A DNA stretch of 64,000 nt from an uncultured Gemmatimonadales bacterium (GCA_963851265.1 CAWKNZ010000003.1:64001-128000); one strand, 5' to 3'. Counted from the first letter of the stretch, positions 1 through 60,201 are shown. The notes: generated by a model from the sequence alone, not told the origin. Translations and numbers: made by a program.

Positions 1-2054
1 TGCGTCTGATCGCCGGGGAGGCCGGAGCCCTGCTGCGCGGCGGAGAAGAGTTGCGTCGGCGCGCGCCCGCGGAACTCGCCGACGCCGCCGCGCACGAACA
101 GCGTCGGGCCGCCGCGGAAGAGCGACGGCGCCCCGGTCGCCGCCTGGCGCGCCTGCGCGGCCGCCTGCTTGGCGCTGTCGGGGAAGAACGTGTACGTGAA
201 GCCCACGCGCGGGCTCGCCCGCAGCTCGCTCGGGAAGCGGTCGGTGCGCAGCCCGAACGCGGAGTCGACCGGGTGGTTGTAGGCCGGCGCGCCCGAGTAC
301 GTCGTCCCTTCCACGCGCACGCCGTACGTGAGCTGGAAGTTGCGGCTCTGGCGCCAGGTGTCGCCGAGGTACGCGTTCAGGTTGAGCGCGCCGCCGCGCA
401 CGTCGGGCGCCTGGAGCGTGCGCTGAAAGAGGGCCGGCGTGTTGCCGAGGAAGTCGGCGAGCGTGTTGTACGTGTACGTGCCGTACGGGCTCGTCGCCGT
501 CTGCTGGGCGAAGCGGCTCGCGTTGAGCAGGCCGCCGAGCTTGATGCGGTGCTGGCCGTTGCCGGTGAGCAGCGACAGCTCGTCCGTGGCCTCGACGTAG
601 TTGGTCTGCCCCTCGTTGGGCAGGCCGGCGTTGGAGCCGAAGCCGAACGACGAGATGCCGGTCGTGCCGTCGGCGAGCGTGCTGGTCACCCGCACGCGGC
701 CGCCCGGGATCTCGACGTAGGGCTGGGCGTTGTTGCTCGCGCGGTTGACGTACACGCGCCCTTCGTTGAGCAGCGCGCCGCCGAGGACCTCGTTCGGGAA
801 GCGCGACGAGAGGGAGGCGAAGAGGCCGCCGCCGCGGTTGGTGCTCTGCCCGCCGTTGGTCGGCACGGCGAACGGCGAGATGCGCGTCGCGTCCTGCGTC
901 TGCGAGCGGAGGTCGCCGCGCAGCGTGAGCGTCTGCGACTCGGAGAGGTTGAAGTCGAACCGCGCGATGCCGGTGACCTGGTCGTTGACGCGCGTGCCGG
1001 GGATGCCCGCCTGGCTGACCGGGATGCCGCGCGTGTTCAGCGCGGAGAGGAACCGCGCCGCCGAGTCGCTGCTCGCGCCGAGCCCGGCGAGGGCGCGCGG
1101 GTCGGCGCCTAACAGCGAGGTGAGCGGGTCGGTGCGGCGGCTCCCCTGGAGCGCGAGGAAGTAGAACGCCTTGTTGGGCGCGAACGCGCCGCCCACGCCC
1201 GCCGAGAGCTGGTTGGACGTGTAGCCGGTGCCGTACGCGCCCGTGTAGTCGGGAGTGACCTGCAGCTGCGGCGCGCGCAGCGTGTAGGTGCCGCCCACGT
1301 ACAGGTTGTTGGTGCCCGAGCGCGTCGTGCTCGCCACCTGCCCGCCCGAGAACTGGCCGCGCGCGACGTCGAACGTGTTGGTGATGACGCGCGTCGCGCG
1401 CACCGCCTCCTGCGGGAAGCTCGCGCCGCCGAAGGTGATGCCGTCGAGGGTGACGTTGTTCTGCGACGCGCGCTGCCCGGCCACGTTGAAGCCGGCCTGC
1501 GTGGTGTCGTTCCCGCCCTGGGAGATCACGCCCGGGGTGATGGCGGCGAGCGCGTTGGGGTCGGTGGCGTCGACCGGCAGGCGGAGCGCCTGCTCGGTGG
1601 TGACGGTGCGCTCCGAGTTGCCCGGCTCCTGGCCGCGGCCGTTGTTGGTGGGCGCGCGGGCCGTGACGCGAACCGGGGCGAGCTGCGTGGTGCTCTGGGC
1701 GAGCGAGACGTTGGCGACGAGGCGGTCCTCGTCGCCCTCACGCTGCACGTTGAGCGTGCGCGGCTGCTGGCCGATCGCGCGCACCACGATCCGGTAACGG
1801 CCGCCGCCGTCGGGAAAGAGCACGGTGTACGTGCCCTTCTCGTTGGTCGACCGCGTGCGGCTCACGCCCGTCTCGAGTGACGTGACCGTGACCTGCGCGT
1901 TCGCCACCGGCTGACCCTGCGTGCCGACGACCTTGCCGGTGACGATGTCGGTCGTGCTGCCGACCTGCGCGGCGGCGACGGCGGGCAGGGCGGCGGCGGC
2001 CGCGACGGCGAGGGCCGCGACGATAGAGCCGCCGGGGCGAGGATGTCGGGACAT
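1..2054 (-). CDS. TonB-dependent receptor-like outer membrane protein with N-terminal carboxypeptidase-regulatory-like domain (3' end runs off the window)
   Basis: Manual translation from ATG at 2054: MSRHPRPGGSIVAALAVAAAAALPAVAAAQVGSTTDIVTGKVVGTQGQPVANAQVTVTSLETGVSRTRSTNEKGTYTVLFPDGGGRYRIVVRAIG (signal peptide + CarboxypepD_reg), then plug-like NVTLDGITFGG...FDVARGQFSGGQV. Absent from the ORF track because no stop lies in the window. Confidence 0.85.
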   Translation of the reverse strand, partial: MSRHPRPGGSIVAALAVAAAAALPAVAAAQVGSTTDIVTGKVVGTQGQPVANAQVTVTSLETGVSRTRSTNEKGTYTVLFPDGGGRYRIVVRAIGQQPRTLNVQREGDEDRLVANVSLAQSTTQLAPVRVTARAPTNNGRGQEPGNSERTVTTEQALRLPVDATDPNALAAITPGVISQGGNDTTQAGFNVAGQRASQNNVTLDGITFGGASFPQEAVRATRVITNTFDVARGQFSGGQVASTTRSGTNNLYVGGTYTLRAPQLQVTPDYTGAYGTGYTSNQLSAGVGGAFAPNKAFYFLALQGSRRTDPLTSLLGADPRALAGLGASSDSAARFLSALNTRGIPVSQAGIPGTRVNDQVTGIARFDFNLSESQTLTLRGDLRSQTQDATRISPFAVPTNGGQSTNRGGGLFASLSSRFPNEVLGGALLNEGRVYVNRASNNAQPYVEIPGGRVRVTSTLADGTTGISSFGFGSNAGLPNEGQTNYVEATDELSLLTGNGQHRIKLGGLLNASRFAQQTATSPYGTYTYNTLADFLGNTPALFQRTLQAPDVRGGALNLNAYLGDTWRQSRNFQLTYGVRVEGTTYSGAPAYNHPVDSAFGLRTDRFPSELRASPRVGFTYTFFPDSAKQAAAQARQAATGAPSLFRGGPTLFVRGGVGEFRGRAPTQLFSAAQQGSGLPGDQT

Positions 2055-2265
2055 GGCGTGAAAGCGGTGCAGAGCGGGGCGACGCGGCAGGACGAACCGC
2101 CGGACGCACGAGGGCCGACGGGCCGGTCGGCCCGGCGGTCTCCCGTCTGAACGCGCAGCCGGCGCGATTCGCTGCTTCCGGCGACGCCGCCGCACGTCGC
2201 GCCAGAGTGCGCCACGCGCCAGCGCGCCGCGTCCAGCCGCGGACCGAGCCCGGGTAGATTCCGGG

Positions 2266-3072
2266 ATGGCCGAATCGTTTGCAGACGACGCGCCCGCGCC
2301 GTCGGTTGTTCCCGGCGCGGAGCTGATGGTCGCGCGCGCGGTGGCGCGCCGCTCCGGGCGCCCGGTGTTCGCGGTCCGCGACGCGACCACGGGCAATCGC
2401 CGCCTCGCGGGCGAGCCGCCCGACGACGTGCGCGACCTCGCCTACCTCGTCGACCGGCGGGGTGGCGTGCGCTACGGTCCCGCCGGGCGGCCCGACGCGC
2501 CGGCGGCCGGCTCGTCGCTCATCCGCGAGGCCGCGCGGATCCCGGCGGCCGAGCTGGCGGTGGCGCGAGACGTCGCCCTCGCGGCCGGCGCGACGGTGTT
2601 CGTGGCCGACCCGCCGGTCTCCGCCCTCGGGGCACTCGACGACGAGGACGACGAGGACGAGACCGTGCTGCTGGCCGACCAGGGCGGCCCGGCGTTCCGC
2701 TTCGAGCCGCCGGCCGACGGCACGCTCCGCTACGCCGTGCGCCCGTGGGGCGAACTCCTGCTCGGCGACGACGCCCGGCGCGAGACGCCGCGCGCGGTGG
2801 ACGACGCGGGGTGGACGCCGCGCGTGAGCGCGGTGCTCCGCACGCTCCGGCGCTTCCGCGAGCGCGGCGCCGCCCTCGCCCCACTCGGCGTGGTGGACGC
2901 GCGCGCGTGGGGACGGGTGGAGCGGCTCGTGCCCGACGCGGAGCGCAAGGCACTGCGCCCGGGCGTCGTCGTGGGACGGCCCGGGCGCGAAGTTGCGGCC
3001 GCCATCGAGGCGGCCGCGGACCGCGAGGTCGCGCGGCTCCGGGCCGAGGCGCGGCGCCGGGTGCGAGACTAA
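2266..3072 (+). CDS. hypothetical protein
   Basis: 268-aa ORF with ATG start, high-GC codon pattern, fills the gap between neighbours; no recognisable motif. Confidence 0.65.
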   Translation: MAESFADDAPAPSVVPGAELMVARAVARRSGRPVFAVRDATTGNRRLAGEPPDDVRDLAYLVDRRGGVRYGPAGRPDAPAAGSSLIREAARIPAAELAVARDVALAAGATVFVADPPVSALGALDDEDDEDETVLLADQGGPAFRFEPPADGTLRYAVRPWGELLLGDDARRETPRAVDDAGWTPRVSAVLRTLRRFRERGAALAPLGVVDARAWGRVERLVPDAERKALRPGVVVGRPGREVAAAIEAAADREVARLRAEARRRVRD

Positions 3073-3113
3073 CCCGACGCGCGGCCCGCCCGGCGCGCGG
3101 CCGCGGCGGTCAG

Positions 3114-3527
3114 TTAGGCCATCGGCCCGGGCGCGCCCTCGCGCACCGCGATCTGCACCCCGGCCTTGGCCTCGCCGTCGATCTCGAGCATGAACGTGTA
3201 GCGCCCGAACTCGGGCAGCCCGAACATGTCGAAGATCATCGGCAGGTCGATCGCGATCGAGTCGATGCCGGCCGGCACCTGCGGCACGTTGATCTCGCCG
3301 CCCGGACGGGCGAGTTCCTGACCCTTGGGGTCCTTGATGACGACTTCGGCCTTGTACGTGCGGCCCGTCTCGTCGCCGGTGAGGAGCAGGCGCGCGGCGA
3401 ACGAGAGGCGCGGCAGCGTGACCGGCACCTGCACCGCCTGGATGTCGCTGAAGACGCCGATGAGCGACGGCTTGCCGTCGGCCCCGACGAGGACGTGGTC
3501 GCACACGGCGACGTATTGGACGTGCAT
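3114..3527 (-). CDS. DUF6941-like small beta-sandwich protein
   Basis: MHVQYVAVCDHVLVGADGKPSLIGVFSDI...LPEFGRYTFMLEIDG; the CD...GKxSLIGVF pattern is typical of this family. ATG at 3527. Confidence 0.75.
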   Translation of the reverse strand: MHVQYVAVCDHVLVGADGKPSLIGVFSDIQAVQVPVTLPRLSFAARLLLTGDETGRTYKAEVVIKDPKGQELARPGGEINVPQVPAGIDSIAIDLPMIFDMFGLPEFGRYTFMLEIDGEAKAGVQIAVREGAPGPMA

Positions 3528-3739: not shown

Positions 3740-5143
3740 GTGGAGCTCGAAGCGAAGCTGGCGGTGCTGGCCGACGCCGCCAAGTACGACGCCTCGTGCG
3801 CGTCGAGCGGGTCGAAGGGGCGCCGCGCTGCCGCGGGCTCGGGCGGGGTGGGCACCACAGAGGGGATGGGCATCTGCCACAGCTACACGCCCGACGGGCG
3901 CTGCGTGTCGCTCCTCAAAATCCTGCTCACCAACTACTGCGTCTACGACTGCCTGTACTGCGTCAACCGCCGGTCGAGCGGCGTCGAGCGCGCGCGTTTC
4001 ACCCCCGCCGAGGTCGTCCGCCTCACGCTCGACTTCTACCGGCGCAACTACATCGAGGGGCTGTTCCTCTCGTCCGGGATCGCGCGGTCGCCCGACCACA
4101 CGATGGAGCAACTCGTCGAGGTCGCGCGCACGCTGCGCGTCGTGCACGACTTCCAGGGCTACATCCACCTCAAGACGATCCCGCACGCGAGCCCCGGGCT
4201 GATCGCCGAGGCCGGGCGCTGGGCCGACCGGCTGAGCATCAACGCCGAGCTGCCCACGCAGGGCGACCTCGCCGCCCTCGCCCCCGAGAAGGACCTCGGC
4301 GTGATCCGCGGCGCGATGACGGCCATCCGCGGGCGGATCGACGAGGCGCGGGCGGCGGGGCCGGGCGCGCGCGCACCGCGCGGCCCCGAGCTCGTCACGC
4401 TCCGGCGCGCGGCGGCGCAGCGGCCCAACGACGCGGCCTCCACGACGCGCGCGCCCGCGCTCTTCGCGCCCGCGGGGCAGAGCACCCAGCTCATCGTCGG
4501 CGCGACCGCATCGACCGACGCCACGATCCTCGCGACCGCGACGTCGCTCTACCAGACGCACCGCCTGCGGCGCGTCTACTACTCCGCGTTCAGCCCGATC
4601 CCCGACGCGCCCACCGCGCTGCCGAGCATGTCGCCGCCGCTCGTGCGCGAGCACCGGCTGTACCAGGCCGACTGGCTCGTCAGGTTCTACGGGTTCCGCG
4701 CCGCGGAGCTGACCACGGCCGCCGCACCCGATCTCGACCTCGCGCTCGATCCCAAGCTCGCGTGGGCGCTCCGCAACCGCGCCGACTTTCCGGTCGACGT
4801 CAACCGCGCGCCGAGGGCGGTCCTGCTGCGCGTTCCCGGCGTCGGCGCGCGGAGCGTGCAGCGCATCCTCGCCACGCGGCGGTGGCGGCGACTGCGCCTC
4901 GCCGACCTCGTGGCACTCAAGGTGGCGGTGAAGCGCGCGCTGCCGTTCGTCGTCACCGCCGACCACACCCCGCGGTTGCTCGACAGCGCCGACCTGCGCG
5001 AGCGGCTGCTCGCCGCACGTCCGCGCGCCGCGGCGGTGCAGACCGACCTGTTCGCCCAGCCGCCCGCCACGTTAGGCGCGGACGGCTGGGCGGCGGCCCG
5101 GGCCGGTGCGTCCGCGCGGTCGGTGCTCTTCGGCGAGCTGTGA
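3740..5143 (+). CDS. putative DNA modification/repair radical SAM protein (TIGR03916-like) with C-terminal HhH
   Basis: KLAVLADAAKYDASCASSG, GICHSYTPDGRCVSLLKILLTNYCVYDCLYCVNR (CxxxCxxC), REHRLYQADWL, LLRVPGVG. Confidence 0.95.
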   Translation: MELEAKLAVLADAAKYDASCASSGSKGRRAAAGSGGVGTTEGMGICHSYTPDGRCVSLLKILLTNYCVYDCLYCVNRRSSGVERARFTPAEVVRLTLDFYRRNYIEGLFLSSGIARSPDHTMEQLVEVARTLRVVHDFQGYIHLKTIPHASPGLIAEAGRWADRLSINAELPTQGDLAALAPEKDLGVIRGAMTAIRGRIDEARAAGPGARAPRGPELVTLRRAAAQRPNDAASTTRAPALFAPAGQSTQLIVGATASTDATILATATSLYQTHRLRRVYYSAFSPIPDAPTALPSMSPPLVREHRLYQADWLVRFYGFRAAELTTAAAPDLDLALDPKLAWALRNRADFPVDVNRAPRAVLLRVPGVGARSVQRILATRRWRRLRLADLVALKVAVKRALPFVVTADHTPRLLDSADLRERLLAARPRAAAVQTDLFAQPPATLGADGWAAARAGASARSVLFGEL

Positions 5144-5153
5144 GCGCGCGCTG

Positions 5154-6818
5154 ATGCCGGAAGCCGCGTTCGACGGAACGCTCGACGGCTGGCGCGCGGC
5201 CGCGCGGGCGGCGCTCGCGGCCGGGCTCGCGCCCGCGCAGGTCGTTTGGGCGCCCGCCGACGATCCGCAGGAAGGGCTCGCGCTCGACCCGCCACCGGCC
5301 CCGCCCGGGACGCCGCCGGCCGCGCGGCCGGACGCGTCGCCCGCCGCGCCTCCGAGCGTCCCGCGCCGGTTCCTCGCGCTCGCTGCGCTGGTGGCCTGCC
5401 ACCGCGACCCGGAGCGCTGGGCCACGCTGTACCGCGTGCTGTGGCGCCTGACGCGCGGCGGCGAGCCGCACCTGCTCGCGGTGGCGGTCGACGCCGACGT
5501 CTTGCACCTCACGCGCATGGCGAAGGCGATCCGGCGCGAGGTGCACAAGATGCACGCGTTCGTACGCTTCCGGCTCGTGCACGCGGCTGACGGCGCGGAG
5601 GAGTACGTCGCGTGGTTCGAGCCGGAGCACGACGTGGTCGAAGCGGCGGCCGCGCTGTTCGTCCGCCGGTTCGCCAACATGCGGTGGGCGGTGCTCACGC
5701 CGCGCACCTCGGTGCGGTGGGACGGGCGCGCGCTCGCGGTCGGCCCAGGGGTCCCGCGCCGCGACGCGCCGTCGGCCGACGCGCTCGAACGGCTGTGGGG
5801 CACGTACTACGCGCACATCTTCAACCCCGCGCGCGTGAAGCTGCACGCGATGCGCGCGGAGATGCCGAAGCGGTACTGGCGCAACCTGCCGGAGGCGCCG
5901 CTCATCGCGCCGATGGTGCGCGACGCCCCGTCGCGCGTGCGGCGGATGGTCGAGGCGGCCGCGGCGCCGCGGCGGGCGATGTTAGGCACGGCCGACGTGC
6001 GCCGGCCCGCCGCCGCGGCGGCGCCTGACGTCGCGCACGCGGGCCCGCCCGCCCCGGACCCGCTCGGCCGGGAGCCGGTCGACGCGGACGCCCCGGCGGC
6101 GATCGCGCCCGCGCGCGTCGGCACGTCGCTCGTCTACGCGGGCACGAGTGATTGGGAGCAGGACGACGCGCTCGGCCCGGCAGATGCCGCGGAACGGCTG
6201 CGCCGCTACGCGGCCCGATACCCGATGGCGGTCGCCGAGTCGACGCGCCGCCGCGTGTTCGCCCCAGCCCTGGCCGCACTCTGGGCAGCCCGCTCGCCTC
6301 GCGGGTTGCTCTTCGACGTCTACGGCCACGACGCCATGCTCGGCGCGGGCGTTCGGCCGCACCGGCTCCCGCGTGCGATCCGCGACCGCCTTCCGGCTTC
6401 GCTCGCGGGCGCCGAGCGCGTGGACGGCGAACTGGTGCCCGACGCGGTCCGCGATGCGATCTGGGAACGGTTCGAGGCGGCCGTCGCGGTGCTCGCGTCG
6501 CACCGCAAGTTGGGCGTGGTCCTCCTCCGCGTCCCCAGCGGATTCGGGCCGACCCGCGAGCACGCCGAGGCACTCCGCGCCGGACTCCGGCGCATCGCGC
6601 GGTGGGACGTGGCGGTCGAGTTCGAAGCCCGCGAGTGGGTGAGCGGAAAGCTGAAGGCGAGGACGGACGACCTGATCGCGCGGGAAGGCGCGGTGCGCGT
6701 TCGGGAGGAAGGAGAGCCGGTGGAACCCGGGCGACTCGCCGTGGTCCGGGGCGGATTCGTCGGGGAGGGGGCGGAGCGGGTGCACGTGATCGGGAGCGCG
6801 GAGCGCCGTAGCCGTTAG
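5154..6818 (+). CDS. TIGR03915/DUF4130-family DNA-repair protein fused to a degenerate DUF72-like domain
   Basis: N-half: HKMHAFVRFR, WFEPEHDVV, FVRRFANMRWAVLTP, YYAHIFNPARVK, EMPKRYWRNLPEA. C-half: YAGTSDW...ERLRRYA...WERF...KLGVVLLRVP...VAVEF (DUF72 pattern). Starts 10 nt after the radical SAM stop. Confidence 0.85.
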   Translation: MPEAAFDGTLDGWRAAARAALAAGLAPAQVVWAPADDPQEGLALDPPPAPPGTPPAARPDASPAAPPSVPRRFLALAALVACHRDPERWATLYRVLWRLTRGGEPHLLAVAVDADVLHLTRMAKAIRREVHKMHAFVRFRLVHAADGAEEYVAWFEPEHDVVEAAAALFVRRFANMRWAVLTPRTSVRWDGRALAVGPGVPRRDAPSADALERLWGTYYAHIFNPARVKLHAMRAEMPKRYWRNLPEAPLIAPMVRDAPSRVRRMVEAAAAPRRAMLGTADVRRPAAAAAPDVAHAGPPAPDPLGREPVDADAPAAIAPARVGTSLVYAGTSDWEQDDALGPADAAERLRRYAARYPMAVAESTRRRVFAPALAALWAARSPRGLLFDVYGHDAMLGAGVRPHRLPRAIRDRLPASLAGAERVDGELVPDAVRDAIWERFEAAVAVLASHRKLGVVLLRVPSGFGPTREHAEALRAGLRRIARWDVAVEFEAREWVSGKLKARTDDLIAREGAVRVREEGEPVEPGRLAVVRGGFVGEGAERVHVIGSAERRSR

Positions 6819-6888
6819 GCGCCTGCCGCGCCGCGACGACCGGCCCCGCGGTACGCGTTCCGATCGACGGCCGCGACGGCGAAGCGCC

Positions 6889-10536: not shown

Positions 10537-11352
10537 ATGTCTACCCTCACGCCCGGCCCGAGGTCACCGGAGCCGCGACCGCTCGCCGTGGTCACCGGAC
10601 CGACCTCCGGAATCGGACGTGCCTTCGCCGAGCGGCTCGCCGTAGCCGGCCACGACCTGTGGCTCGTCTCGCGCGATGCCGCGCGCCTGCACGCCGTCGC
10701 CGACGAGCTCGGCGCCGCCCACGGTGTCGGGACGCGGGTGCACCCGGCCGACCTCGCGGACGAGGCCGCCGTGCGCGGACTCGCCGCCCGTCTCGCCGCC
10801 GAGCCGCGCATCGACGTGCTCGTCAACAACGCGGGCTACGGGACGCACACCCGCATCGTCGGCCGCGATCCGGACGCCGAGGCGCGCATGCTCGCCGTGC
10901 ACTGCGCCGCGCCGCTCCGACTCGCTCAGGCGGTGCTGCCGGGCATGGTCGCGCGCCGCGCGGGCGCGGTCGTCAACGTCGCGTCGGTGGCCGCGTTCGT
11001 GCCCAACGCGCAGTACGCGACGTACAACGCGACCAAGGCGTTCCTCCAACTGCTGAGCGAGGGCATGGCCGCCGAGGTGGCGGCATCGGGGGTGCGCGTG
11101 CAGGCGCTGTGTCCCGGGTTCACGCGCACCGAGTTTCACGCGCGCATCGGGCGCCGGGGGGCGGCAATGGCCGAACGCGTGCCGCGCGCACTCTGGATGA
11201 CGCCCGAGGCGGTCGTCGACGCGTCGCTACGCGCCCTCGCGCGCGGCGGGCCGGTGACGGTGGTGCCGGGACTCGGCTACCGTACGGCGGTCGCCGTGCT
11301 CCGCCGGCTGCCGCTCCGCGCGCTCGCGTGGGGCGCGCGGCGGAGCGCCTAA
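10537..11352 (+). CDS. SDR family NAD(P)-dependent oxidoreductase
   Basis: VVTGPTSGIG, DVLVNNAG, YNATK (YxxxK), ALCPGFTRTEF. Confidence 0.93.
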   Translation: MSTLTPGPRSPEPRPLAVVTGPTSGIGRAFAERLAVAGHDLWLVSRDAARLHAVADELGAAHGVGTRVHPADLADEAAVRGLAARLAAEPRIDVLVNNAGYGTHTRIVGRDPDAEARMLAVHCAAPLRLAQAVLPGMVARRAGAVVNVASVAAFVPNAQYATYNATKAFLQLLSEGMAAEVAASGVRVQALCPGFTRTEFHARIGRRGAAMAERVPRALWMTPEAVVDASLRALARGGPVTVVPGLGYRTAVAVLRRLPLRALAWGARRSA

Positions 11353-11407
11353 CAGGGTCCGGCGCCGCGCCGTCCGCGGGCCACCACGCCTCACCGCCTT
11401 CATCGCC

Positions 11408-12413: not shown

Positions 12414-13559
12414 ATGCGATTCCGCGTTCGCCTCCTCGCCGCCGCGCTCGTCGCGGCCGGTACACTCTCGCCGTCCGTGCGCACCCCGCTCGGCGCGCAG
12501 GTCAACCCCGGCTCGGTCTCCGCCCCGACGGGACCGCGGGCCGTCGCGACCGCCGCGGGCGACGTCACGCTGCGCGACTTCCGCTTCGACTCGGGCGGCA
12601 CGCTCCCCGCACTCCGCATGCACTACCGCACGCTCGGCCGCCCGCGCCGCGACGCGGGCGGCGTGGTGCGCAACGCCGTCCTCATCCTCCACGGCACCGG
12701 CGGCGCGGGTACGCAGTTCCTCGGCCCCAACTTCGCGGGCGAGCTGTTCGGCGCCGGGCAGCCGCTCGACACGACGCGCTACTACGTCGTCCTCCCGGAC
12801 GACATCGGCCACGGCCAGTCGAGCAAGCCGAGCGACGGACTGCGCGCGCGCTTCCCGCACTACACCTACGGCGACATGGTCCGCGCCGAGCGCCTGATGC
12901 TCGAGGAGGGGCTCGGCGTTAGGCACCTGCGCCTCATCCTGGGTACGTCGATGGGCTGCATGCACGCGTGGGTGTGGGGCACCACGCAGCCGGGCTACGC
13001 CGACGCGCTCGCGCCCTTCGCCTGCCTCCCGACGCAGATCGCCGGGCGCAACCGGATGTTCCGCCGCATGGCGATGGACGACATCCGCCTCGACCCGGCG
13101 TGGCAGAACGGCGAGTACCGCACGCAGCCGCCGGGGCTCACCGCGGCGCTGCAGATCCTGTTCATCATGGGCAGCGCGCCGCTCGTGCAGCAGGCGCAGG
13201 CGCCCACGCAGCGCGCGGCCGACAGCGTCATCACCGCGTTCCTCGCGGCGCGGCGCGCCGCGACCGACGCCAACGACTTCCTCTACCAGTTCGATTCGTC
13301 GCGCGACTACGACCCCTCGGCGCTACTCGAGCGCGTGCGCGTGCCGGTCCTCGCCATCAACTCCGCCGACGACGAGATCAACCCGCCCGACATCCACGTG
13401 ATGGAGCGCCTCATCCCACGCGTGCCGACCGCGCGCTACGTGCTCATCCCCGCGGGGCCGACCACGCGCGGGCACGGCACACACACGCAGGCGGCCGTGT
13501 GGAAGGGGGAGCTGGCGCGCTTCCTCGACGCGCTGCCGCCCGTCGCGGCGCTCCGGTGA
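12414..13559 (+). CDS. secreted alpha/beta hydrolase (homoserine O-acetyltransferase-like fold)
   Basis: Signal peptide; LILHGTGG, GTSMG nucleophile motif, NSADD, GHGTH. Confidence 0.88.
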   Translation: MRFRVRLLAAALVAAGTLSPSVRTPLGAQVNPGSVSAPTGPRAVATAAGDVTLRDFRFDSGGTLPALRMHYRTLGRPRRDAGGVVRNAVLILHGTGGAGTQFLGPNFAGELFGAGQPLDTTRYYVVLPDDIGHGQSSKPSDGLRARFPHYTYGDMVRAERLMLEEGLGVRHLRLILGTSMGCMHAWVWGTTQPGYADALAPFACLPTQIAGRNRMFRRMAMDDIRLDPAWQNGEYRTQPPGLTAALQILFIMGSAPLVQQAQAPTQRAADSVITAFLAARRAATDANDFLYQFDSSRDYDPSALLERVRVPVLAINSADDEINPPDIHVMERLIPRVPTARYVLIPAGPTTRGHGTHTQAAVWKGELARFLDALPPVAALR

Positions 13560-14365
13560 ACGGGCGCGCCGCGACGCTCGACGCGGTGATCGCGGTCGAC
13601 TGGAGCGGCGCGCTGACCGGCTCCGAACGCAAACTGTGGCTCTGCCAGGTCGAGCGCGGCGCCGTCGTTAGGCTCGCGTCGGGGCGGACGCGCGACGCGC
13701 TCGTCGACGACGTGATCGCGACGGCGCGGCGCATCCCGCACGTGGTCGCGGGCTTCGACTTCGCGTTCTCGTTCCCCGCGTGGTTCTTCGCCGAACGCGG
13801 GCTGCCCGACGCACGCGCCCTCTGGGCACTCGCCGCGCGCGAGGGCGAGGCCTGGCTCCGAGGCCCGGTCACGCCCTTCTGGGGGCGGGGTGGGTCGAAA
13901 CGCCCCGAACTCCCCGCCCACGTGCGCCGCACCGAGCAGGCCGCGGGCGAGCGTGCCGCCCGCCAACCATCCTCGGTGTTCAAGCTCGTCGGCGCGGATC
14001 AGGTGGGCGCCGGCTCGGTGCGCGGAATGCCCGCGTTGGCGCGACTGGCCGCGGCAGGGTTCGCGGTGTGGCCGTTCGACGATCCGCGCGCGGGGCGGCC
14101 GGTCGCGGTCGAGATCTGGCCGCGCCTGCTGTACGCCGCGCCGGTCGTGAAGTCGTCGGCCGACGCGCGGGCGGAGTACCTCGACCGCCACGCGCCGGAC
14201 ATCGCCGACGAGTTCCGGCGCGCGGCCGCGGCGAGCGACGACGCCTTCGACGCGCTCACCGCCGCCCTCGCCATGTGGGACGGCCGCGACGGGCTGGCCG
14301 CCCTGCCCGCCGCGCGCGACGCCGCGGAGCGCCTCGAGGGGCGCATCTGGGGTCCCGCGCCGTAG
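13556..14365 (+). CDS. DUF429-like predicted nuclease (RNase H-like fold)
   Basis: GTGA overlap with the upstream stop; AVDWSGA, GFDFAFSFP, VEIWP, DAFDA, EGRIW. Confidence 0.72.
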   Translation: MNGRAATLDAVIAVDWSGALTGSERKLWLCQVERGAVVRLASGRTRDALVDDVIATARRIPHVVAGFDFAFSFPAWFFAERGLPDARALWALAAREGEAWLRGPVTPFWGRGGSKRPELPAHVRRTEQAAGERAARQPSSVFKLVGADQVGAGSVRGMPALARLAAAGFAVWPFDDPRAGRPVAVEIWPRLLYAAPVVKSSADARAEYLDRHAPDIADEFRRAAAASDDAFDALTAALAMWDGRDGLAALPAARDAAERLEGRIWGPAP

Positions 14366-16582: not shown

Positions 16583-16878
16583 TAGTGGTCGGCACCGGAG
16601 ATTTGGAGACGTTTCGGCAGTTCTCGATGCCGTCGACCGGGACACGCCACCCGCGTTAGGCCTGCGCCTGGTTTTCGACCACGCGTCAACACGCGGAACG
16701 GCGCTGACCAAGGGATGGCTGCTCCAGCACTCGCGCGTTCACCCGCCCGCGCACCCGCGCCTGCACCCGCGTTCCAGCACGACGTCGACCCGAAGCGGTT
16801 CGTCTGGGCCGAGTCTGCCAACCGAATCCTCGCCGCGGTTGACCGGTATTGCCGGCGACCTTCCGGATCACACCACGA
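16583..16878 (+). mobile_element. degenerate IS630-like remnant
   Basis: Translation HDVDPKRFVWAESANRILAAVDRYCRRPSGSHH resembles IS630 transposase C-termini; ends TAGTGGTCGGCACCGGA and TCCGGATCACACCACGA form an imperfect inverted repeat (12/17). Confidence 0.55.
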
Positions 16879-17724: not shown

Positions 17725-18459
17725 TCAGGCCGCCAGCCGCTCCAGCCCGCCGCTCTCCGCCACCCCCGCCCCCGCGGCCGCCCACCGCTCGACCATCGCG
17801 TCCACACGCTCCAGCCCCAGCCCCCACGTCGCATCCCGCACGACCACCACCTCGTACCCCCGTGCCAGCAGCCCCTCCACCGCCTGCCGCACGCAGACGT
17901 CGGCCGCGACCCCGCACACCACGAACGCCGGCGCCGCCGCGGCTCCGCGCGCCACGGCCGCGGCCAGCGCCGCCACGAACGCGTCCGCCCCCGGGTTCCC
18001 GTCGAACACCGAGAACTCGCGCTTGTGCACGAACACCGGCTGCCCCGCCGCGGCCGCCTCCGCCGCCGCGCGCGCCTCGCCCTCGGTCGCGTCGCGGCCT
18101 AACACCACCGTCGCCGCCGGGTCGGGCGCGACGCTCGGCAGCAGCTCCGCCCCGCGCCGCTCCGCGGCGTCGGGCGAGAGCCCCATGCAGTGCGGCGGGT
18201 ACGTCCCGCGCGTGGCGTCGGGCGCGACCGCGTCGATCTCCCGGTCGTCGGCGGCGTGCCAGTCGCCGGTGTACACGAGCGCGTCCGCGTGCGCCCTCAG
18301 CCACGCCACCGTCCGCTCGATCGCCGGCAACGCCCGCGTCGCGCCCGCGTCGGCGGCGTCGAACAGGTCGTGCACGTAGAGCCGCCCCCCGGCGTCCGGC
18401 GGGTCCATGAAGTCGCGCTGCACGTCGACCACCCAGCCGATGAGCGGACGCGCGTTCAC
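17725..18459 (-). CDS. cysteine hydrolase (nicotinamidase/isochorismatase family)
   Basis: VVDVQRDF, DWH, YPPHC, HKREFSVF, GVAADVCV; GTGA overlap with the upstream gene. Confidence 0.88.
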   Translation of the reverse strand: MNARPLIGWVVDVQRDFMDPPDAGGRLYVHDLFDAADAGATRALPAIERTVAWLRAHADALVYTGDWHAADDREIDAVAPDATRGTYPPHCMGLSPDAAERRGAELLPSVAPDPAATVVLGRDATEGEARAAAEAAAAGQPVFVHKREFSVFDGNPGADAFVAALAAAVARGAAAAPAFVVCGVAADVCVRQAVEGLLARGYEVVVVRDATWGLGLERVDAMVERWAAAGAGVAESGGLERLAA

Positions 18460-43651: not shown

Positions 43652-45883
43652 TCACGCGGCGTGGCGGGCGCCCCGCAGAGGGCCGGATTCGTCCAGCGCT
43701 TCGCCGCGTTCGGCGAGCGCAACCACCTCGGCTACGTCCAGGATGAGTCCCACGCGCCCGTCGCCGAGAATCGCACCGCCCGCGACGCCCGCGACCCGAC
43801 CGACGCCGCTGCCTAACGACTTGGCGACGACCTGCTGTTGACTCAACAGCTCGTCGACGAGGAGCGCGGACCGTCGCTGCCGCCCGTCGCCGACGATGAC
43901 GAGCAGGGCGCGTGCGGGGTCGAGTTCGGCGCCGTCGATCTGGAACAGGCGGTGCAGGCGGACGACCGGAAGCACCTCGCCACGGAGCGTGACCACCTCT
44001 CCCCGTCCGCCAATCGTCCGGATCGCGTCGGGCGACGGGCGGAAACTCATGTGGATGTTCGTGGTCGGGACGACGTAGCGCTCGGTACCGACACGCACGA
44101 GCATGCCGTCCGTCACCGCGAGCGTGAGCGGCAGGCGTACGGTGAACGTGCTGCCCATCCCGGCCCGGGAGGTGATCTCGACGCGACCGCGCGCGCGCTC
44201 GACGTTCCGGCGCACGACGTCCATCCCGACGCCGCGGCCCGAAAGGTCGGTCACCTGGTCGACCGTCGAGAACCCGGGCGCGAAGATGAGCTGGTACACG
44301 TCCGCGTCGCTCATCCCGTGCTCGCTCGCGATGATCCCCTTCTCGATCGCCTTGCGGACGATGCGCTCGCGGTTGAGCCCGCGCCCGTCGTCGACCAGTT
44401 CGACGACGACGCTCCCGCCCGAGTGGAACGCGGAAAGCCGGACCGTGCCGTGACGCGGCTTGCCGGCCGCGACGCGCTCGTCGGCCGGTTCGATGCCGTG
44501 GTCGATCGCGTTGCGCACCATGTGCACGAGCGGGTCGCCGATCACGCCGACGAGGGCGCGGTCGATCTCCGTGTCGTCTCCCTCGGTGACGAACTCGACC
44601 TCCTTGCTGACCTTCGCCGACACGTCGCGCACGAGCCGCGTCATCTTCTGGAACGTCGCCTTGAGCGGCACCATGCGCATGCCCATCGACAGCTCCTGCA
44701 ACTCGCGCACGATCTTGCCAGCGTGTCCGAGCTTCTTGGTCAGGGTCGCGAGTGCCTGGTGCGTCTCTCCGGTCTCGGCGAGGGCGTCGTCGCCGGCGAT
44801 CATCGCCTGCGCGATCACGAGCTCGCCGACGAGGTCGACCAGTCGGTCGAGGCGGTCGGTGCGGACGCGGAGGAACTGATCCGCGTCGCCAGCGCCCGAC
44901 GCCTGCCGACGATCGGCACCCTGCCGCCGGTCCTCCTGTCGGCGCTCCTCGTGACGCCGCTCCTCGGAGCGGCGCTCGGTACCGGTCTGCGTGGCCGCGT
45001 CGGCAGTCGCCGCGGGTGGCGGCGCCGGGACGTCCGCACGTACCGTGGCGACGGCGGGCGCGTCGACCGGCGCCGCCGTGGGGTCGTACGCCGCGAGGGC
45101 TCCGGCGAGGGTCGCGTACTCGCCGGGCACGAAGATCGTGCCGCCCGGGCCGTGCGCTCGCAGCGTGTCGTCGATCGCGTCGAGCAGCGCCTTGAGCATG
45201 TCGACGGAGCGGAGCGCGAGTTCGGCGCACGCCGTGGTGTATGCGATCTCTCCGGCACGCACGCGGGCGAGCAGCGACTCCGCCTCGTGCGCGAAAGCGC
45301 TCATCCGGACGAGGCCGAGGAACGCGCTCGTGCCCTTGATCGTGTGAAACGCCCGGAACACGGTATTGATCGCCTCGCCGTCGTCGGGCGCATGCTCGAG
45401 AGCGAGGAGGGCGGCCTCGCTCCCCCCGAGGCAGTCGCGGCTCTCGGCGAGGAAGTCCGCGAGCAGGTCGAGGTCGACGTCGGTGGGCAGCACCTCGGGC
45501 GCGGCCGCGGCGCTCGCCGGCTCGGCGGTCGCCGGCTCGGCGGGGCGCGCTTCAACCGTCGGCGTGATCGTCACAGGCGCCACCGATGGCGCGGTCGCGG
45601 CGGGCGCCGGGGCGGCGACTCCGGACGCCGGCGCCCCGGCCATCACCTGCTCCAGCAGCGCTCCGACCTCCGCCAGCACTGCGGCGGGGTCCGGGGCCTT
45701 TCCTTCGACGAGTGGCTTCAAGGTGCGCACCGCGCGCGCCAGAAGTGGTTGTACGCTAATCGCGACCTTGTTTCCGAACGCCAGATCGGCGAGTTGGTCG
45801 CGCACGCGCCCAAGGTCGTCGCGATCCTCCGGTTCGAGTTGGAGGAAGTACGTTGCGACGTCGTCGAGGGTAGGCTCGGGCAT
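43652..45883 (-). CDS. cheA: chemotaxis histidine kinase CheA
   Basis: Hpt FRAFHTIKG, dimerisation LDRLVDLVGELVI, HMVRNAIDHGIE, DDGRG, FAPGFST, SGRGVGMDVV, C-terminal CheW domain. Confidence 0.97.
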   Translation of the reverse strand: MPEPTLDDVATYFLQLEPEDRDDLGRVRDQLADLAFGNKVAISVQPLLARAVRTLKPLVEGKAPDPAAVLAEVGALLEQVMAGAPASGVAAPAPAATAPSVAPVTITPTVEARPAEPATAEPASAAAAPEVLPTDVDLDLLADFLAESRDCLGGSEAALLALEHAPDDGEAINTVFRAFHTIKGTSAFLGLVRMSAFAHEAESLLARVRAGEIAYTTACAELALRSVDMLKALLDAIDDTLRAHGPGGTIFVPGEYATLAGALAAYDPTAAPVDAPAVATVRADVPAPPPAATADAATQTGTERRSEERRHEERRQEDRRQGADRRQASGAGDADQFLRVRTDRLDRLVDLVGELVIAQAMIAGDDALAETGETHQALATLTKKLGHAGKIVRELQELSMGMRMVPLKATFQKMTRLVRDVSAKVSKEVEFVTEGDDTEIDRALVGVIGDPLVHMVRNAIDHGIEPADERVAAGKPRHGTVRLSAFHSGGSVVVELVDDGRGLNRERIVRKAIEKGIIASEHGMSDADVYQLIFAPGFSTVDQVTDLSGRGVGMDVVRRNVERARGRVEITSRAGMGSTFTVRLPLTLAVTDGMLVRVGTERYVVPTTNIHMSFRPSPDAIRTIGGRGEVVTLRGEVLPVVRLHRLFQIDGAELDPARALLVIVGDGRQRRSALLVDELLSQQQVVAKSLGSGVGRVAGVAGGAILGDGRVGLILDVAEVVALAERGEALDESGPLRGARHAA

Positions 45884-54587: not shown

Positions 54588-55541
54588 TCAGCGGAGGTAT
54601 TCCGTTAGGCTCAGCCCCATCACCTTCGACGAGGCCATCATGGCAGTCTGGTACGCGGTCTGGCGTGCGACCATCTCGGTGTAGGCCTGCGCGGTGTCGA
54701 CCTGGCTCAGGTCGGACTTCTGCTGCGTGAACGTCGTTTGCAGCGCGGCGAGGCTGGTCTTCACGGCGTCGACCCGGTTCTGGCGCGCGCCGAGGTCGCC
54801 GACGCGGACCTGGACCGAGTCGACCGCGGCATCGACCGACGTGAGGGCGTTGCCGATCGTGGACGGGTCGGCGCTGGAGAGCGATTGCTGCAGCTGCTGG
54901 AGCGCGGCGAGTACGCCCTTGCTGCTGTCGGGCGCTCCGTTGGTCGTACCCAGGAAGACCGACGTGCCGTCGTGCGGTCCGGGGAGGGTCTGGCCGCCGG
55001 CGCCGACGTCGACCGAACGTTCACCCGTCGGGTAGCGCGGAACGGGCGGTGCGCCGACCGTCGCCGCCGGATCGGTGGGGACGAAGTTCGGTTGCGTGGC
55101 GTCGAACGGCTCGCGCCCGTCGTTGCTGGTGCCGCCGAAGAGATAGGTGTTGCCGACCTTCGTGTTGCCGAGGTTCACGGCCTGCGCGAAGAGTTGCTGC
55201 ACCTCCGCGGCGGCGGCGGCGCGCGAGCTCGCGCTCGCCGTCGAGGAGTTCCCGGCGGTGCCGAGTTCCTTCGCCCGGTTCAGGATGTCGGTGATCTGCT
55301 GGAGCGCGCCGTCTTCTGCGTTGAGGAGCGTGCTCGTGCCCGTCGCGTTGCGCGTGTACTGGTCGATGCCGCGCAGCGAGGCCTGGGCTCGCACGACCTG
55401 ACTCGCCGCGGTCGGGTCGTCGCTCATCTTGGTCAGCTTGAGGCCGGACGAGACCTGGTCCTGGGCGTCGGACAGCTTGGAGGACGCGTCCATCAAGCGG
55501 GCGATGATGGCCTGCGTCTGGCCGGCGGTAGTTACGCGCAT
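54588..55541 (-). CDS. flgL: flagellar hook-associated protein FlgL
   Basis: MRVTT...QVSSGLKLTKMSDDP, YLFGG, LGARQNR, LSLTEYLR. Confidence 0.95.
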   Translation of the reverse strand: MRVTTAGQTQAIIARLMDASSKLSDAQDQVSSGLKLTKMSDDPTAASQVVRAQASLRGIDQYTRNATGTSTLLNAEDGALQQITDILNRAKELGTAGNSSTASASSRAAAAAEVQQLFAQAVNLGNTKVGNTYLFGGTSNDGREPFDATQPNFVPTDPAATVGAPPVPRYPTGERSVDVGAGGQTLPGPHDGTSVFLGTTNGAPDSSKGVLAALQQLQQSLSSADPSTIGNALTSVDAAVDSVQVRVGDLGARQNRVDAVKTSLAALQTTFTQQKSDLSQVDTAQAYTEMVARQTAYQTAMMASSKVMGLSLTEYLR

Positions 55542-55685: not shown

Positions 55686-57134
55686 ATGGCCACCATCCTC
55701 TGGGTCGACGACGACGCTGCCGTCGGCCTGATTCTCGACGACACGCTGCGCCGCGCGGGGCACGAACCGGTGGGCGCGCGGCACGTCGCCGAGGCGCTGC
55801 ACGTGCTCGAGCGGTCGGCGATCGACCTCGTGATCTCGGACTACCGGATGCCGGGAATCACGGGCCTCGAGTTCCTGACGATGTTGCAGCGCGAGGGGCA
55901 CGACGTGCCGGTGATCATGCTGACCGGGCACGCGTCGATCGAGCACGCGGTGACGGCGATCAAGGCCGGCGCGGTGGACTACATCACCAAGCCCGTGCGC
56001 CCGCAGCAGCTCGAGCTGGCGGTGGACCAGGCGCTCGAGTACGTACGGCTCAAGCGCGAGAACGAGGCGTTACGGCGCGAGGTGAGCGCGATCCGGAGCG
56101 AGCGGCAGATCGTCGGCGAGTCGCCGGCGATGCGCCGGCTGCTGCAGACGGTGAAGACGGCCGCGCCGACGCGCGCCACGGTGCTGCTCCAAGGGGAGAG
56201 CGGAACGGGCAAGGAGCTGTTCGCGCGCGCGGTGCACGACCAGAGCGAGCGGCGCGACCGGCCCTTCATCCAGCTCAATTGCGCGGCGCTCCCGGAGGGG
56301 CTCATCGAGAGCGCGTTGTTCGGGCACGAGAAGGGCGCGTTCACGGGGGCGATCCGGCGGGTGGAGGGCGCGTTCGAGCGCGCGCACCGCGGGACGCTGC
56401 TGCTGGACGAGGTGAGCGAGATGCGGCTCGACCTGCAGGCGAAGCTGCTGCGCGTGCTGCAGGAGCAGGAGTTCGAGCGGGTGGGCGGGACGCAGCCGGT
56501 GAAGGTGGACGTACGGATCATCGCGACGACGAACCGCGACCTCGCGTCGGAGGCGGCGGCGGGCACGTTCCGGCAGGACCTCTACTACCGGCTGAGCGTC
56601 ATCCCGCTGTCGATTCCGCCGTTGCGGGAGCGGCCCGAGGACGTGCCGCTGCTGGCGACGCGATTCGCCGTGCGGACGGCGGACGAGATGGGGAAGCGGT
56701 TCGACGGGATCGCGCCGGAGACCATGCTGGCACTGCAGCGCTACACGTGGCCGGGGAACGTGCGCGAGCTGCAGCACGTGATCGAGCGGGCGGTCATCCT
56801 GTCGCCGGAGGCGACGCTGCTGCCGCACGCGCTGGAGCCGGCGCGGTTTGGGCTGACGGGTGCGGGGATCGGTTCGGGCGGGCCGGGGGCTCGCGGCGCG
56901 GCGCTGGCCGCACTCGCGGCGTCGAACGGCGCGGCGGGGGAGGGCGGCGGCGCCGCGGACGACCCGATGCGGGTGGTGCTCCATTCGCTCGACGTGACGC
57001 GCGCCGAGGCGGTGTTGATCGAGCGCGCGCTGGAGGTCGCCAAAGGCAACCGGACGCGCGCGTCGGAGCTGCTCGGGATTTCGGTGCGGACGCTGCGGAA
57101 CAAGCTGAACGGACCGGGGCGCGAGGTGGCCTAA
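55686..57134 (+). CDS. sigma54-dependent response regulator (NtrC family)
   Basis: Receiver domain, GESGTGKE, GAFTGA, LDEV, QAKLLRVLQE, WPGNVREL, Fis-type HTH. Confidence 0.96.
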   Translation: MATILWVDDDAAVGLILDDTLRRAGHEPVGARHVAEALHVLERSAIDLVISDYRMPGITGLEFLTMLQREGHDVPVIMLTGHASIEHAVTAIKAGAVDYITKPVRPQQLELAVDQALEYVRLKRENEALRREVSAIRSERQIVGESPAMRRLLQTVKTAAPTRATVLLQGESGTGKELFARAVHDQSERRDRPFIQLNCAALPEGLIESALFGHEKGAFTGAIRRVEGAFERAHRGTLLLDEVSEMRLDLQAKLLRVLQEQEFERVGGTQPVKVDVRIIATTNRDLASEAAAGTFRQDLYYRLSVIPLSIPPLRERPEDVPLLATRFAVRTADEMGKRFDGIAPETMLALQRYTWPGNVRELQHVIERAVILSPEATLLPHALEPARFGLTGAGIGSGGPGARGAALAALAASNGAAGEGGGAADDPMRVVLHSLDVTRAEAVLIERALEVAKGNRTRASELLGISVRTLRNKLNGPGREVA

Positions 57135-57165
57135 CGCACGGGTCGCGCAGGCGCGGGCGGCCCTG

Positions 57166-59336: not shown

Positions 59337-59373
59337 CGCCGGTCCGTGCGGTCAGAGTGGATGGAACGCCAGG

Positions 59374-60201
59374 CTAGCGCACCCCCGTACCGGCGACATC
59401 GCGACGCTCACGAGCGCGCTCGCGCTCCGACCCGACGCGGCCCGAGCTCGGATTCGGCGGCAGCGAGGTGATGGGCTCGACCACCGGGCGATAGTTGGCC
59501 GAGTGCGGTTCGAGCTGCGCGCTGCCGGCGAGGGTCATGAAGCCGTAGCCGACCTTCGCGATGATGTCGAGCACGAGGAAGATCAGTGCTTCGGTCGGGG
59601 CCTCGAAGAGGCGGAACCCTTCGGGCGCGCCGAGCCAGACGAGCGGGTACAGGAGCCAGAGCACGGACAGGACGGTCGCGTTGCGCGTGAACACGGCGCC
59701 GACCGTCGGGCTGGTCTGGCTTTTGGCCTCGCGGCGGAGCGGCCCCCAGATCAGCGCGTACACAGCCAACTGGAACGCGCAGCTCACGATGTACCAGGTG
59801 ACCTTGGAGCCCTGCACGTGCGACAGCGCGGCGGCGAGGCCGGTGCCCATGATCGCGACGTCGGCGACGAGGATGCCGACGACGAGCGCGGGGCGGCGCC
59901 GCAGCTCACCGAGCGCCGTGGTGCAGAGCGCGGCGAGCAGGAGTGGCGTCGTGATCGACCAGTCGACGTAGCGGGCGAGGTAGACGTGCCGCGACTGCTC
60001 GGGGATCTCGACCCGGAGCTGGTCGAGGCCCATGAACGTGTAGAAGACGGCCGCCGTTAGGCAGACGAGGAGGTGGAAGACGTACTCCGGCTCGGAGTCG
60101 CGCGGCTTGCCGCGCGACCGCGCGATCATCGCGAACGCGCCGAGCGCGAGGACCACCGTGCCCACCCAGTAAAACTGCCGCTCACTTGCGTACGGTTCCA
60201 T
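59374..60201 (-). CDS. microbial (type 1) rhodopsin, DTA motif
   Basis: Seven TM segments; helix C ARYVDWSITTPLLLAAL, helix F LWLLYPLVW, helix G LDIIAKVGYG (retinal Lys); purine-rich RBS before ATG 60201. Confidence 0.96.
   Translation of the reverse strand: MEPYASERQFYWVGTVVLALGAFAMIARSRGKPRDSEPEYVFHLLVCLTAAVFYTFMGLDQLRVEIPEQSRHVYLARYVDWSITTPLLLAALCTTALGELRRRPALVVGILVADVAIMGTGLAAALSHVQGSKVTWYIVSCAFQLAVYALIWGPLRREAKSQTSPTVGAVFTRNATVLSVLWLLYPLVWLGAPEGFRLFEAPTEALIFLVLDIIAKVGYGFMTLAGSAQLEPHSANYRPVVEPITSLPPNPSSGRVGSERERARERRDVAGTGVR

Follow-up and report, generated by a model that had tools for sequence, protein, structure and literature searches.

A 64,000-nucleotide stretch of DNA from an uncultured Gemmatimonadales bacterium, referred to here as the window, raises the question of why the non-palindromic heptamer GTTAGGC recurs in and between its genes, and what kind of factor might read it. 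The window corresponds to G000:C3:64001-128000, part of a 4.60-Mb assembly (G000; 12 contigs, 73% GC, 94% complete) that its DnaA relatives place in the Gemmatimonadaceae, the best matches being metagenome-assembled genomes (MAGs) of Gemmatimonadaceae and Gemmatimonadales at 58-64% identity. We confirm that the hyper-abundance of the word is real, both in the window and in the genome. Among the explanations weighed below, the one that we place first, at close to an even chance and by analogy with known systems, is that the word would be an uptake-sequence-like self tag spread by biased transmission.

Abundance and specificity of the word

A sequence-only reading of the window had listed 30 exact copies, and our recount agrees: 19 are read as GTTAGGC and 11 as GCCTAAC on the plus strand. 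Dinucleotide-preserving shuffles of the window contain 2.41 copies on average and 7 at most, and none of 100 shuffles reached 30. The pyrimidine reported 5' of GTTAGGC in 27 of the 30 copies was likewise recovered, as C in 19 and as T in 8.

The genome contains 1,762 copies, found on every one of the 12 contigs with densities of 0.33-0.55 per kb and an overall spacing of about one copy in 2.6 kb, whereas Markov models of order 1, 2 and 3 predict 160, 96 and 127. The word tops the over-representation ranking of 6-, 7- and 8-mers by a wide margin, and exceeds the third-order Markov null by approximately 14-fold and a synonymous-codon shuffle by approximately 18-fold. The octamer CGTTAGGC occurs 1,396 times versus 58 expected (z ~174), the next unrelated octamer having a z of ~47. 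Genes were called by a self-trained codon model and are approximate (3,677 genes, 87% of G000). Their coding sequence carries 1,279 copies, compared with 70 +/- 9 (maximum 95) in 20 within-gene shuffles that preserve the proteins and the per-gene codon counts, including the TTA codons contributed by the word itself. The enrichment thus survives a codon-preserving null.

The signal is highly specific. TTAGGC occurs 1,794 times in G000 and is preceded by G in 1,762 cases. The 21 single-substitution siblings of GTTAGGC are ordinary or rare, and those that keep the TTA number from 8 to 64 copies, so that sibling words are not comparably enriched. Neither of the two outcomes named by the sequence-only reading as refuting its claim was observed. 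The one-step neighbour GTTGGGC is over-represented about 2-fold (1,393 copies versus 558-687 expected at Markov orders 1-3); GCTAGGC, the other one-step neighbour, has 56 copies and is not enriched. Lower Markov orders were used for the ranking. A maximal-order ranking was not used, because it hides GTTAGGC, whose own sub-words are enriched. The top heptamers of that ranking have the form AGC/AGS...GCT (AGGCGCT, AAGCGCT, AGCGGCT, AGACGCT), which hints at a second compositional peculiarity of G000 around AGCGCT-like words.

Contexts, flanks and turnover of the copies

More than half of the copies in G000, 992 of 1,762 (56%), lie on the sense strand of genes as nnG-TTA-GGC and encode Leu-Gly. 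Antisense copies appear in the gene as CCT-AAC (Pro-Asn) in 195 cases and as nGC-CTA-ACn in 67, and 23 copies are read in sense as GTT-AGG (Val-Arg). Stop codons are overlapped by 189 copies (108 as GCC-TAA, 67 as nGT-TAG and 14 shared by two convergent genes), 294 are non-coding and 2 are other boundary cases. As a result, of the 1,276 in-frame TTA codons of the genome, 992 (78%) fall inside the word, which also provides 122 of the 429 TAA stops (28%) and 83 of the 732 TAG stops. Synonymous opportunities are filled with the heptamer at 9.3% of x-Leu-Gly sites (991/10,705) and at 13.7% of antisense x-Pro-Asn sites (195/1,419); for the octamer, the occupancies are 16.7% (780/4,660) and 21.1% (165/782), respectively. 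The dominance of the sense strand therefore reflects opportunity, because synonymous sites on both strands are filled comparably. Frames that require two rare codons are filled far less (0.7% for Val-Arg).

The flanking positions display the same preferences in the non-coding copies and in each of the five coding contexts. C occupies position -1 in 73-89% of the copies and is followed in frequency by T, one context being the exception; at position +7, G accounts for 50-64% and T for no more than 2-5%. Beyond positions -1 to +7, the flank analysis of G000 revealed no information other than codon periodicity. Because the flanks are alike in all contexts and nothing is conserved beyond them, the recognised unit comprises about 9 bp, C-GTTAGGC-(not T), and is read on DNA. 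The proposal of the sequence-only reading that the word is a genome-wide signal at the level of DNA, and not of protein, is supported by these data.

The same observations bear on three other explanations: that the word reflects a codon or translation effect, with the rare TTA codon as a regulatory device, that it is left over from a mobile repeat, or that it arose as an artefact of sequencing. The concentration of TTA codons inside the word is what a codon effect would give, and the assembly does contain frame breaks, in dnaA and in hsdM-like genes. However, approximately 44% of the copies are antisense, in stop codons or non-coding and have the same flanks; a tRNA-Leu(UAA) is encoded in G000; no conservation extends beyond ~9 bp; and the enrichment is found in dozens of independent assemblies of varied contiguity as well as in a finished isolate record. 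In addition, three window copies are reproduced exactly by contigs of a public sequencing run (X1), which may be the source sample; across three public runs, the region is covered by short, low-depth contigs only. A mobile repeat of the repetitive extragenic palindrome or miniature inverted-repeat transposable element type was rejected on the lack of conservation beyond the core and on the 83% of copies that are genic or overlap stop codons. We regard the codon-level, mobile-repeat and artefact explanations as essentially excluded, and none of them as seriously credible. Concerning the frame breaks, dnaA (G000:C1:11433-12854) lacks an in-frame N-terminal part, and the hsdM-like genes at contig ends (C7:771474-772495 and C9:923-1858) consist of pieces in different frames; either assembly indel errors or pseudogenes would account for them.

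Conservation was analysed in two other species of the same genus (g1), G001 and G004, which share about 80% DNA identity with G000. Motif sites are kept in 31 of 59 cases in G001 and in 18 of 40 in G004, compared with 30-32% identity for heptamers overall. Restricted to the Leu-Gly phase, the comparison gives 25 of 43 motif sites retained in G001 and 15 of 28 in G004, versus 26-28% for all heptamers of the same phase; the preferred-codon equivalent of the motif, G-CT(C/G)-GGC, is retained at 28% and 50%. The commonest states at sites that are not kept are GCTCGGC and GTTGGGC, both of them synonymous. The retention above background, together with these synonymous replacements, indicates that the copies are maintained and yet turn over.

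Within the window, independent gene calls bear out every codon context named by the sequence-only reading. Its statement that the word is embedded in many frames holds in that several frames are used, but their use is very uneven, with 19 of the 30 copies in nnG-TTA-GGC, 2 in CCT-AAC, 2 in GTT-AGG, 2 in CTA-AC, 4 in stop codons and 1 intergenic. The sense Leu-Gly copies on the plus strand are located at 5071..5077 (gene 3740-5143), 5981..5987 (gene 5154-6818), 14817..14823 and 15018..15024 (both in the decarboxylase gene 14389-15873), 21704..21710 (gene 19590-23198), 25459..25465 and 25822..25828 (gene 23234-26323), 27377..27383, 27698..27704 and 28232..28238 (histidine kinase gene 27084-28376), 28690..28696 (gene 28373-28837) and 36423..36429 (amidase gene 35197-37050). 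Those on the minus strand lie at 1107..1113 in a minus-strand gene, 18097..18103 (minus-strand gene 17725-18459), 29230..29236 and 29647..29653 (minus-strand gene 28879-30096), 38634..38640 (minus-strand gene 37608-38978), 41015..41021 (cheB-like gene 40229-41299) and 43811..43817 (cheA-like gene 43652-45883). The copies at 25822, 27377 and 29230 are the three that recur in contigs of run X1.

The Val-Arg copies, both on the plus strand, are found at 12918..12924 (gene 12477-13559) and 13667..13673 (gene 13556-14365). Antisense Pro-Asn copies occur on the minus strand at 22781..22787, opposite gene 19590-23198, and at 36705..36711, opposite the amidase gene. Two plus-strand copies are antisense as nGC-CTA-ACn, one at 54604..54610 in gene 54588-55541, where it gives Leu-Thr, and one at 60056..60062 in the rhodopsin gene 59374-60201. 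Stop codons are provided at 3113..3119 (+), a GCC-TAA for the minus-strand gene 3114-3527; at 6814..6820 (+), an nGT-TAG for gene 5154-6818; and at 11347..11353 (-) and 57129..57135 (-), each a GCC-TAA for the plus-strand genes 10588-11352 and 55686-57134, respectively. The intergenic copy is at 16655..16661 (+). The rhodopsin gene itself belongs to a minus-strand cluster (57166-60201) that comprises genes for a beta-carotene 15,15'-dioxygenase, a lycopene cyclase and a bacteriorhodopsin-like protein and adjoins flagellar and chemotaxis genes; the cluster looks like a retinal-based light-harvesting module.

Distribution along the chromosome and across the family

The two orientations of the word are balanced in G000, with 885 forward and 877 reverse copies. 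The GC skew of the genome is too weak and noisy for placing the origin or the terminus, and the direction of replication on contig C2 was derived from gene-strand bias only, which suggested two converging replichores. Over C2 1.0-1.83 Mb, sense and antisense copies number 136 and 20 in presumed leading-strand genes, and 33 and 5 in lagging-strand genes. Because the sense share is equal in the two classes (87%), no polarity of the kind displayed by Chi or by FtsK-orienting polar sequences (KOPS) is apparent.

This result weighs on the idea that the word is a Chi-like or 'self-marker' signal, by which a helicase-nuclease or an accessory defence system spares the DNA that carries it. The word resembles Chi (read by RecBCD/AddAB) and KOPS (read by FtsK) in that these are asymmetric 7- to 8-mers of roughly kilobase density; the spacing of about one copy per 2.6 kb is similar to the density of Chi in E. 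coli. Presence or absence at the species level, as for accessory defence genes, and the occurrence of the word on both megaplasmids of a cultured strain (see below) would also fit. Unlike Chi and KOPS, which are skewed with replication, the word shows no orientation bias once gene strand is controlled, and both strands are filled equally per opportunity. RecC (PF04257) was not found in G000 nor in 21 of the 22 enriched genomes of a 44-genome panel; AddAB and AdnAB were outside this search. Like all gene absences reported here, this one stems from six-frame family searches of MAGs and is to be read as 'not found'. RecC matches were obtained in 5 of the 44 panel genomes, one of them enriched; g42, which is the genus sister to g1, is represented among them by both of its genomes, and g1 by none. 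The Chi/KOPS analogy drawn by the sequence-only reading is thus disfavoured, and we hold a Chi-like or self-marker role to be very improbable.

In non-coding DNA, the density of copies is 0.99 per kb in 3'-3' (convergent) spacers, 0.47 in tandem spacers and 0.33 in 5'-5' (divergent) spacers. Within tandem spacers, 85 copies are oriented with the genes and 83 against them, and in the spacer analysis of G000 neither promoters nor other classes of functional site were preferred. The density is highest where constraint is lowest, namely at stop codons and in 3'-3' spacers. Occupancy also climbs with the GC content at third codon positions (GC3), from 3.7% in the lowest quintile, which holds the most atypical genes, to 15.7% in the highest; atypical genes were defined by GC3 and codon score only. 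Because the rise is steady, the most 'native' genes are those that carry most copies.

The spread of the word was surveyed by comparing octamer counts with a reversed-word control in 201 Gemmatimonadaceae genomes, with the results tallied by hand. Four of the genomes are unpublished (G011, G053, G054 and G152), and none of the individual claims made here depends on these four. The octamer reaches at least 3x the control in about 55 genomes, 23 of which attain at least 10x (the maximum being 7,821 copies, in G207); it lies between 1x and 3x in 18 and below the control in about 128. Levels are mostly uniform within a genus, the exceptions being G126 (66 copies versus ~3,500-4,100 in its congeners) and G019 (173 versus 858-1,991). 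Carriers span 59-74% GC and have the same word with the same flanks. Outside the family, none of 119 genomes of the phylum, including the unpublished G255 and G282, reaches 3x by the octamer, the highest value being 2.5x in G323; by the heptamer count, G040 of a neighbouring family reaches ~3x. In Gemmatirosa kalamazoonensis KBS708, a cultured, non-pathogenic isolate from soil, both megaplasmids bear the word, with 42 GTTAGGC per 50 kb on plasmid 1 and 30 CGTTAGGC per 50 kb on plasmid 2, where about 1 is expected in each case. Small contigs of G027, from the neighbouring family f2, C43 and C80 among them, display GTTAGGC in regular inverted pairs ~83 bp apart that recur at intervals of 450-550 bp; the pattern resembles a gene or element in tandem repeats and not the dispersed word.

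Of the non-carriers, G070 contains 1 copy in 200 kb and G051 contains 0 in 200 kb. A GidA tree interleaves carriers and non-carriers and includes the supported sister pairs G000/G051 (96), G190/G019 (99) and G068/G126 (91). The tree is a quick, single-gene one that was not fully searched, and only these three pairs are relied upon. Given this interleaving, the determinant of the word would have been lost or gained many times.

Candidate readers and the uptake analogy

A search for methyltransferases in G000 gave no match to the C5 (PF00145), beta-class N4/N6 (PF01555) or D12-class (PF02086) families, and Vsr (PF03852) was not found. The gamma-class (PF02384) matches comprise fragments with broken frames at the ends of two contigs and a single intact protein, a 1,141-residue Eco57I/MmeI-like methyltransferase encoded beside a 759-residue SNF2 helicase (G000:C7:579717-585511). 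Judged by sequence, the pair resembles DrmMI/DrmD (PADLOC) or Type IIG enzymes. The 1,141-residue protein is present in 187 of the 201 family genomes at ~45-60% identity, regardless of the motif, and is therefore not the determinant. It is unusually conserved for a defence-module-like gene. The sister pairs also speak against other N6_Mtase genes as the determinant: no further match of this kind was obtained in the carriers G190 and G068, while their motif-free sisters do have such matches.

These searches are pertinent to an alternative in which a modification enzyme, together with very-short-patch (VSP)-like mismatch repair, converts near-cognate sequences into the word inside the cell. Such writing was proposed by Elhai for the highly iterated palindrome HIP1 of cyanobacteria (GCGATCGC) and for alternate HIPs, according to the part of that paper accessible to us (PMC4390886). 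Patchy presence among sister species is as expected of mobile methyltransferase genes, and the 2-fold excess of GTTGGGC, a common orthologous replacement, would suit conversion from a near-cognate. GCCTAAC, moreover, is presumably akin to the asymmetric motifs in which Type IIG/IIL enzymes methylate A. The gene content described above nevertheless gives no support to the footprint of methylation-directed repair that the sequence-only reading had listed, the other one-step neighbour, GCTAGGC, is not enriched, and known VSP-type effects are far weaker than 14- to 28-fold. We consider writing of this kind improbable.

Genes for DNA uptake are widespread. Among the 44 panel genomes, ComEC was found in 42 (22 of the 22 enriched ones and 20 of the 22 without the word), PilM in 44, the secretin in 43 and the ComEA-type HHH_3 domain in 44. 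In G000, ComEC is encoded at C2:1510102-1510974, PilM and the secretin on C5, and a ComEA-like gene at C7:759936; nine prepilin-like genes are also present. The window contributes a further ComEA-type HHH_3 protein of 107 residues (37126-37449, plus strand). It has matches at syntenic places in G001 and G004, and short open reading frames of similar score occur in the non-carriers G070 and G169, which suggests that it is not carrier-specific.

We rank the uptake-like self tag first because the results match what is described for the DNA uptake sequences (DUS) of Neisseriaceae and the uptake signal sequences (USS) of Pasteurellaceae, and because HIP1 is now argued to be an uptake signal; of the analogues listed by the sequence-only reading, DUS fit best. 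According to this proposal, C-GTTAGGC-(not T) would be an asymmetric recognition word of ~9 bp, read by a sequence-specific factor on double-stranded or incoming DNA, and would pile up genome-wide because DNA carrying it is transmitted preferentially. The likeliest route would be that of DUS and USS: competent cells with type IV pili, ComEA and ComEC would take up word-bearing fragments more readily, and recombination would put the imported fragments in place of homologous DNA, a molecular drive that may or may not be assisted by selection for 'safe' conspecific DNA. Point mutation would be the origin of new copies, which would persist only where they are cheap, that is, at synonymous Leu-Gly and Pro-Asn sites, in stop codons and in 3' spacers. 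The reader would then be part of the machinery for DNA uptake or transformation, and biased transmission, not selection on each site, would maintain the copies.

The likeness to DUS and USS extends over several properties. In each case the word is short and non-palindromic, occurs in thousands of copies over both strands and shows no polarity with respect to replication. The words are conserved above background with turnover and shared across related genera, and the genomes encode type IV pili, ComEA and ComEC. They also lie in genes at permissive positions, are commoner at the 3' ends of genes and are poor in atypical genes, as far as the accessible text of the DUS literature describes; permissive placement such as that found here is reported for DUS in the portion of PMC2397512 available to us. 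HIP1 is comparable as a hyper-abundant octamer in coding DNA that is conserved, restricted to a phylum as the present word is to a family, and missing from some lineages. It differs in being palindromic and recognised by the methyltransferases DmtA and DmtC, whereas the word described here is asymmetric and no cognate methyltransferase was found. In the part of a recent paper open to us (PMC13756078), HIP1 is proposed as an uptake recognition sequence: it is correlated with genes for type IV pili and competence, and transformation is reportedly enhanced by it.

Several observations weigh against the uptake-like tag or set the word apart from DUS and USS. It is an A+T-containing word in a 73% GC genome and forces the rarest leucine codon. 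The spacing of copies is nearly exponential (coefficient of variation 1.07), thus not more even than random. Inverted pairs of the terminator type are rare: among the 26 gaps shorter than 100 bp (66 expected in G000), only 9 pairs are inverted, a few of which form hairpins. The flanks of the copies are conserved at 0.81-0.86 versus 0.80 for random DNA, slightly more and not less, while DUS-proximal DNA is reported to be more divergent in the part of PMC2397512 that was accessible. Close sister species of carriers are entirely without the word, and 200-kb samples from the non-carriers G070 and G051 yielded no alternative hyper-abundant 'dialect' word. As discriminators, the uptake genes were rejected, ComEC, the secretin, HHH_3 and PilM being near-universal and present in non-carriers too. 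A PilA-like paralogue beside polA, the one gene compared among the nine prepilin-like genes, was rejected as a reader akin to ComP, the DUS receptor of Neisseriaceae: in a first small panel it showed 60% identity to one carrier as against 50-52%, but in a 30-genome panel the identity to its orthologues is ~48% in carriers and non-carriers alike. Literature searches, judged by their best-ranked papers, returned no report of uptake or transformation in Gemmatimonadota. Two further difficulties, the sister pairs and a region devoid of copies, lead to the alternatives considered next.

Sister species with and without the word would require repeated loss or transfer of the specificity factor. A reading that takes this pattern at face value is that the word is written and maintained by an accessory, horizontally mobile determinant, which would be distinct both from a classical methyltransferase/Vsr pair and from the core uptake machinery, and which would have been gained and lost repeatedly among sister species of Gemmatimonadaceae. 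Such a sequence-specific 'word-writing' drive might be, for instance, a factor for biased gene conversion or repair, or else a portable module for uptake or entry specificity; in the genomes that have it, it would recode up to a fifth of the compatible sites on chromosomes and megaplasmids alike. We judge this reading decidedly unlikely.

The region devoid of copies is a 45-kb desert at C1:182876-227962, with zero copies versus ~17 expected, which an uptake tag does not explain. It holds gidA, parA, parB and mnmE and has syntenic counterparts in G001 and G004 that are 75-82% identical. On account of this synteny and of the core genes, a foreign origin of the DNA was rejected. The orthologous gidA-parAB zones are poor in copies in G001 (3 in 38 kb) and G004 (9 in 43 kb), and normal in G012, G207 and G059, which represent three other genera of carriers.

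The desert is of particular interest for the explanation that the word is the binding site of an abundant chromosomal protein (a nucleoid-associated protein, a segregation or condensation factor, or an accessory of replication or repair), with weak selection for the density of sites. An empty or poor gidA-parA-parB-mnmE zone in genus g1 would fit exclusion from the domain of a partition complex. A footprint of ~9 bp that is fixed in every context, the copies on all contigs and both KBS708 megaplasmids, and the scarcity of copies less than 100 bp apart (26 versus 66) are likewise in line with such a site. However, selection would need to be effective at each of ~1,800 rare-codon sites despite being very weak, G012, G207 and G059 show no depletion of the parAB zone, sister species do entirely without the word, copies prefer neither promoters nor functional sites, and no candidate protein was found. 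We view a chromosomal-protein site as unlikely, and continue to favour the uptake-like tag.

GTTAGGC and GCCTAAC also fit the integron core consensus GTTRRRY/RYYYAAC of attC and attI letter for letter, and GCCTAAC occurs in the accessible part of an integron paper (PMC12901181). The copies are, by contrast, single and dispersed in genes, without cassette structure; intI was not searched for. With 26 pairs within 100 bp and 9 inverted ones in the whole genome, they are not arranged as attC sites, as the sequence-only reading had already stated. Separately, two similar elements of ~100 nucleotides (C10:194557-194653 and C10:202949-203045) have an inverted pair of the word at their ends and an internal hairpin (TTGCAAAGC...GCTTTG), and may represent a small repeat or a structured RNA.

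The sequence-only reading knew of no description of the word for this lineage, and our literature searches agree. A full-text search for the word itself returned only the integron paper and a primer. No paper with the taxon name was among the best-ranked results for Gemmatimonadota or Gemmatirosa combined with uptake, competence, over-representation or methylation, and a search for work on hyper-abundant prokaryotic words returned none on GTTAGGC.

To our knowledge, hyper-abundant self-words with a known function are established in two proteobacterial families only, as DUS and USS. HIP1 in cyanobacteria represents a third case, only now linked to uptake, and the same kind of signal is now found in Gemmatimonadota, a soil phylum with few cultured strains. 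Its strength is such that the word occupies 78% of the occurrences of the rarest leucine codon and 28% of the TAA stops. Whatever its function, it distorts codon usage, the choice of stop codons and k-mer composition, and gene finders, codon-bias studies and binning tools may need to allow for it in carrier genomes. Because sister species differ in carriage of the word, the gene for its reader should be findable by comparative genomics, and because Gemmatirosa kalamazoonensis is a cultured carrier, the function is testable. If the word is indeed an uptake tag, it would provide the first evidence for sequence-specific natural transformation in Gemmatimonadota, and could offer a practical handle for genetics in this phylum.

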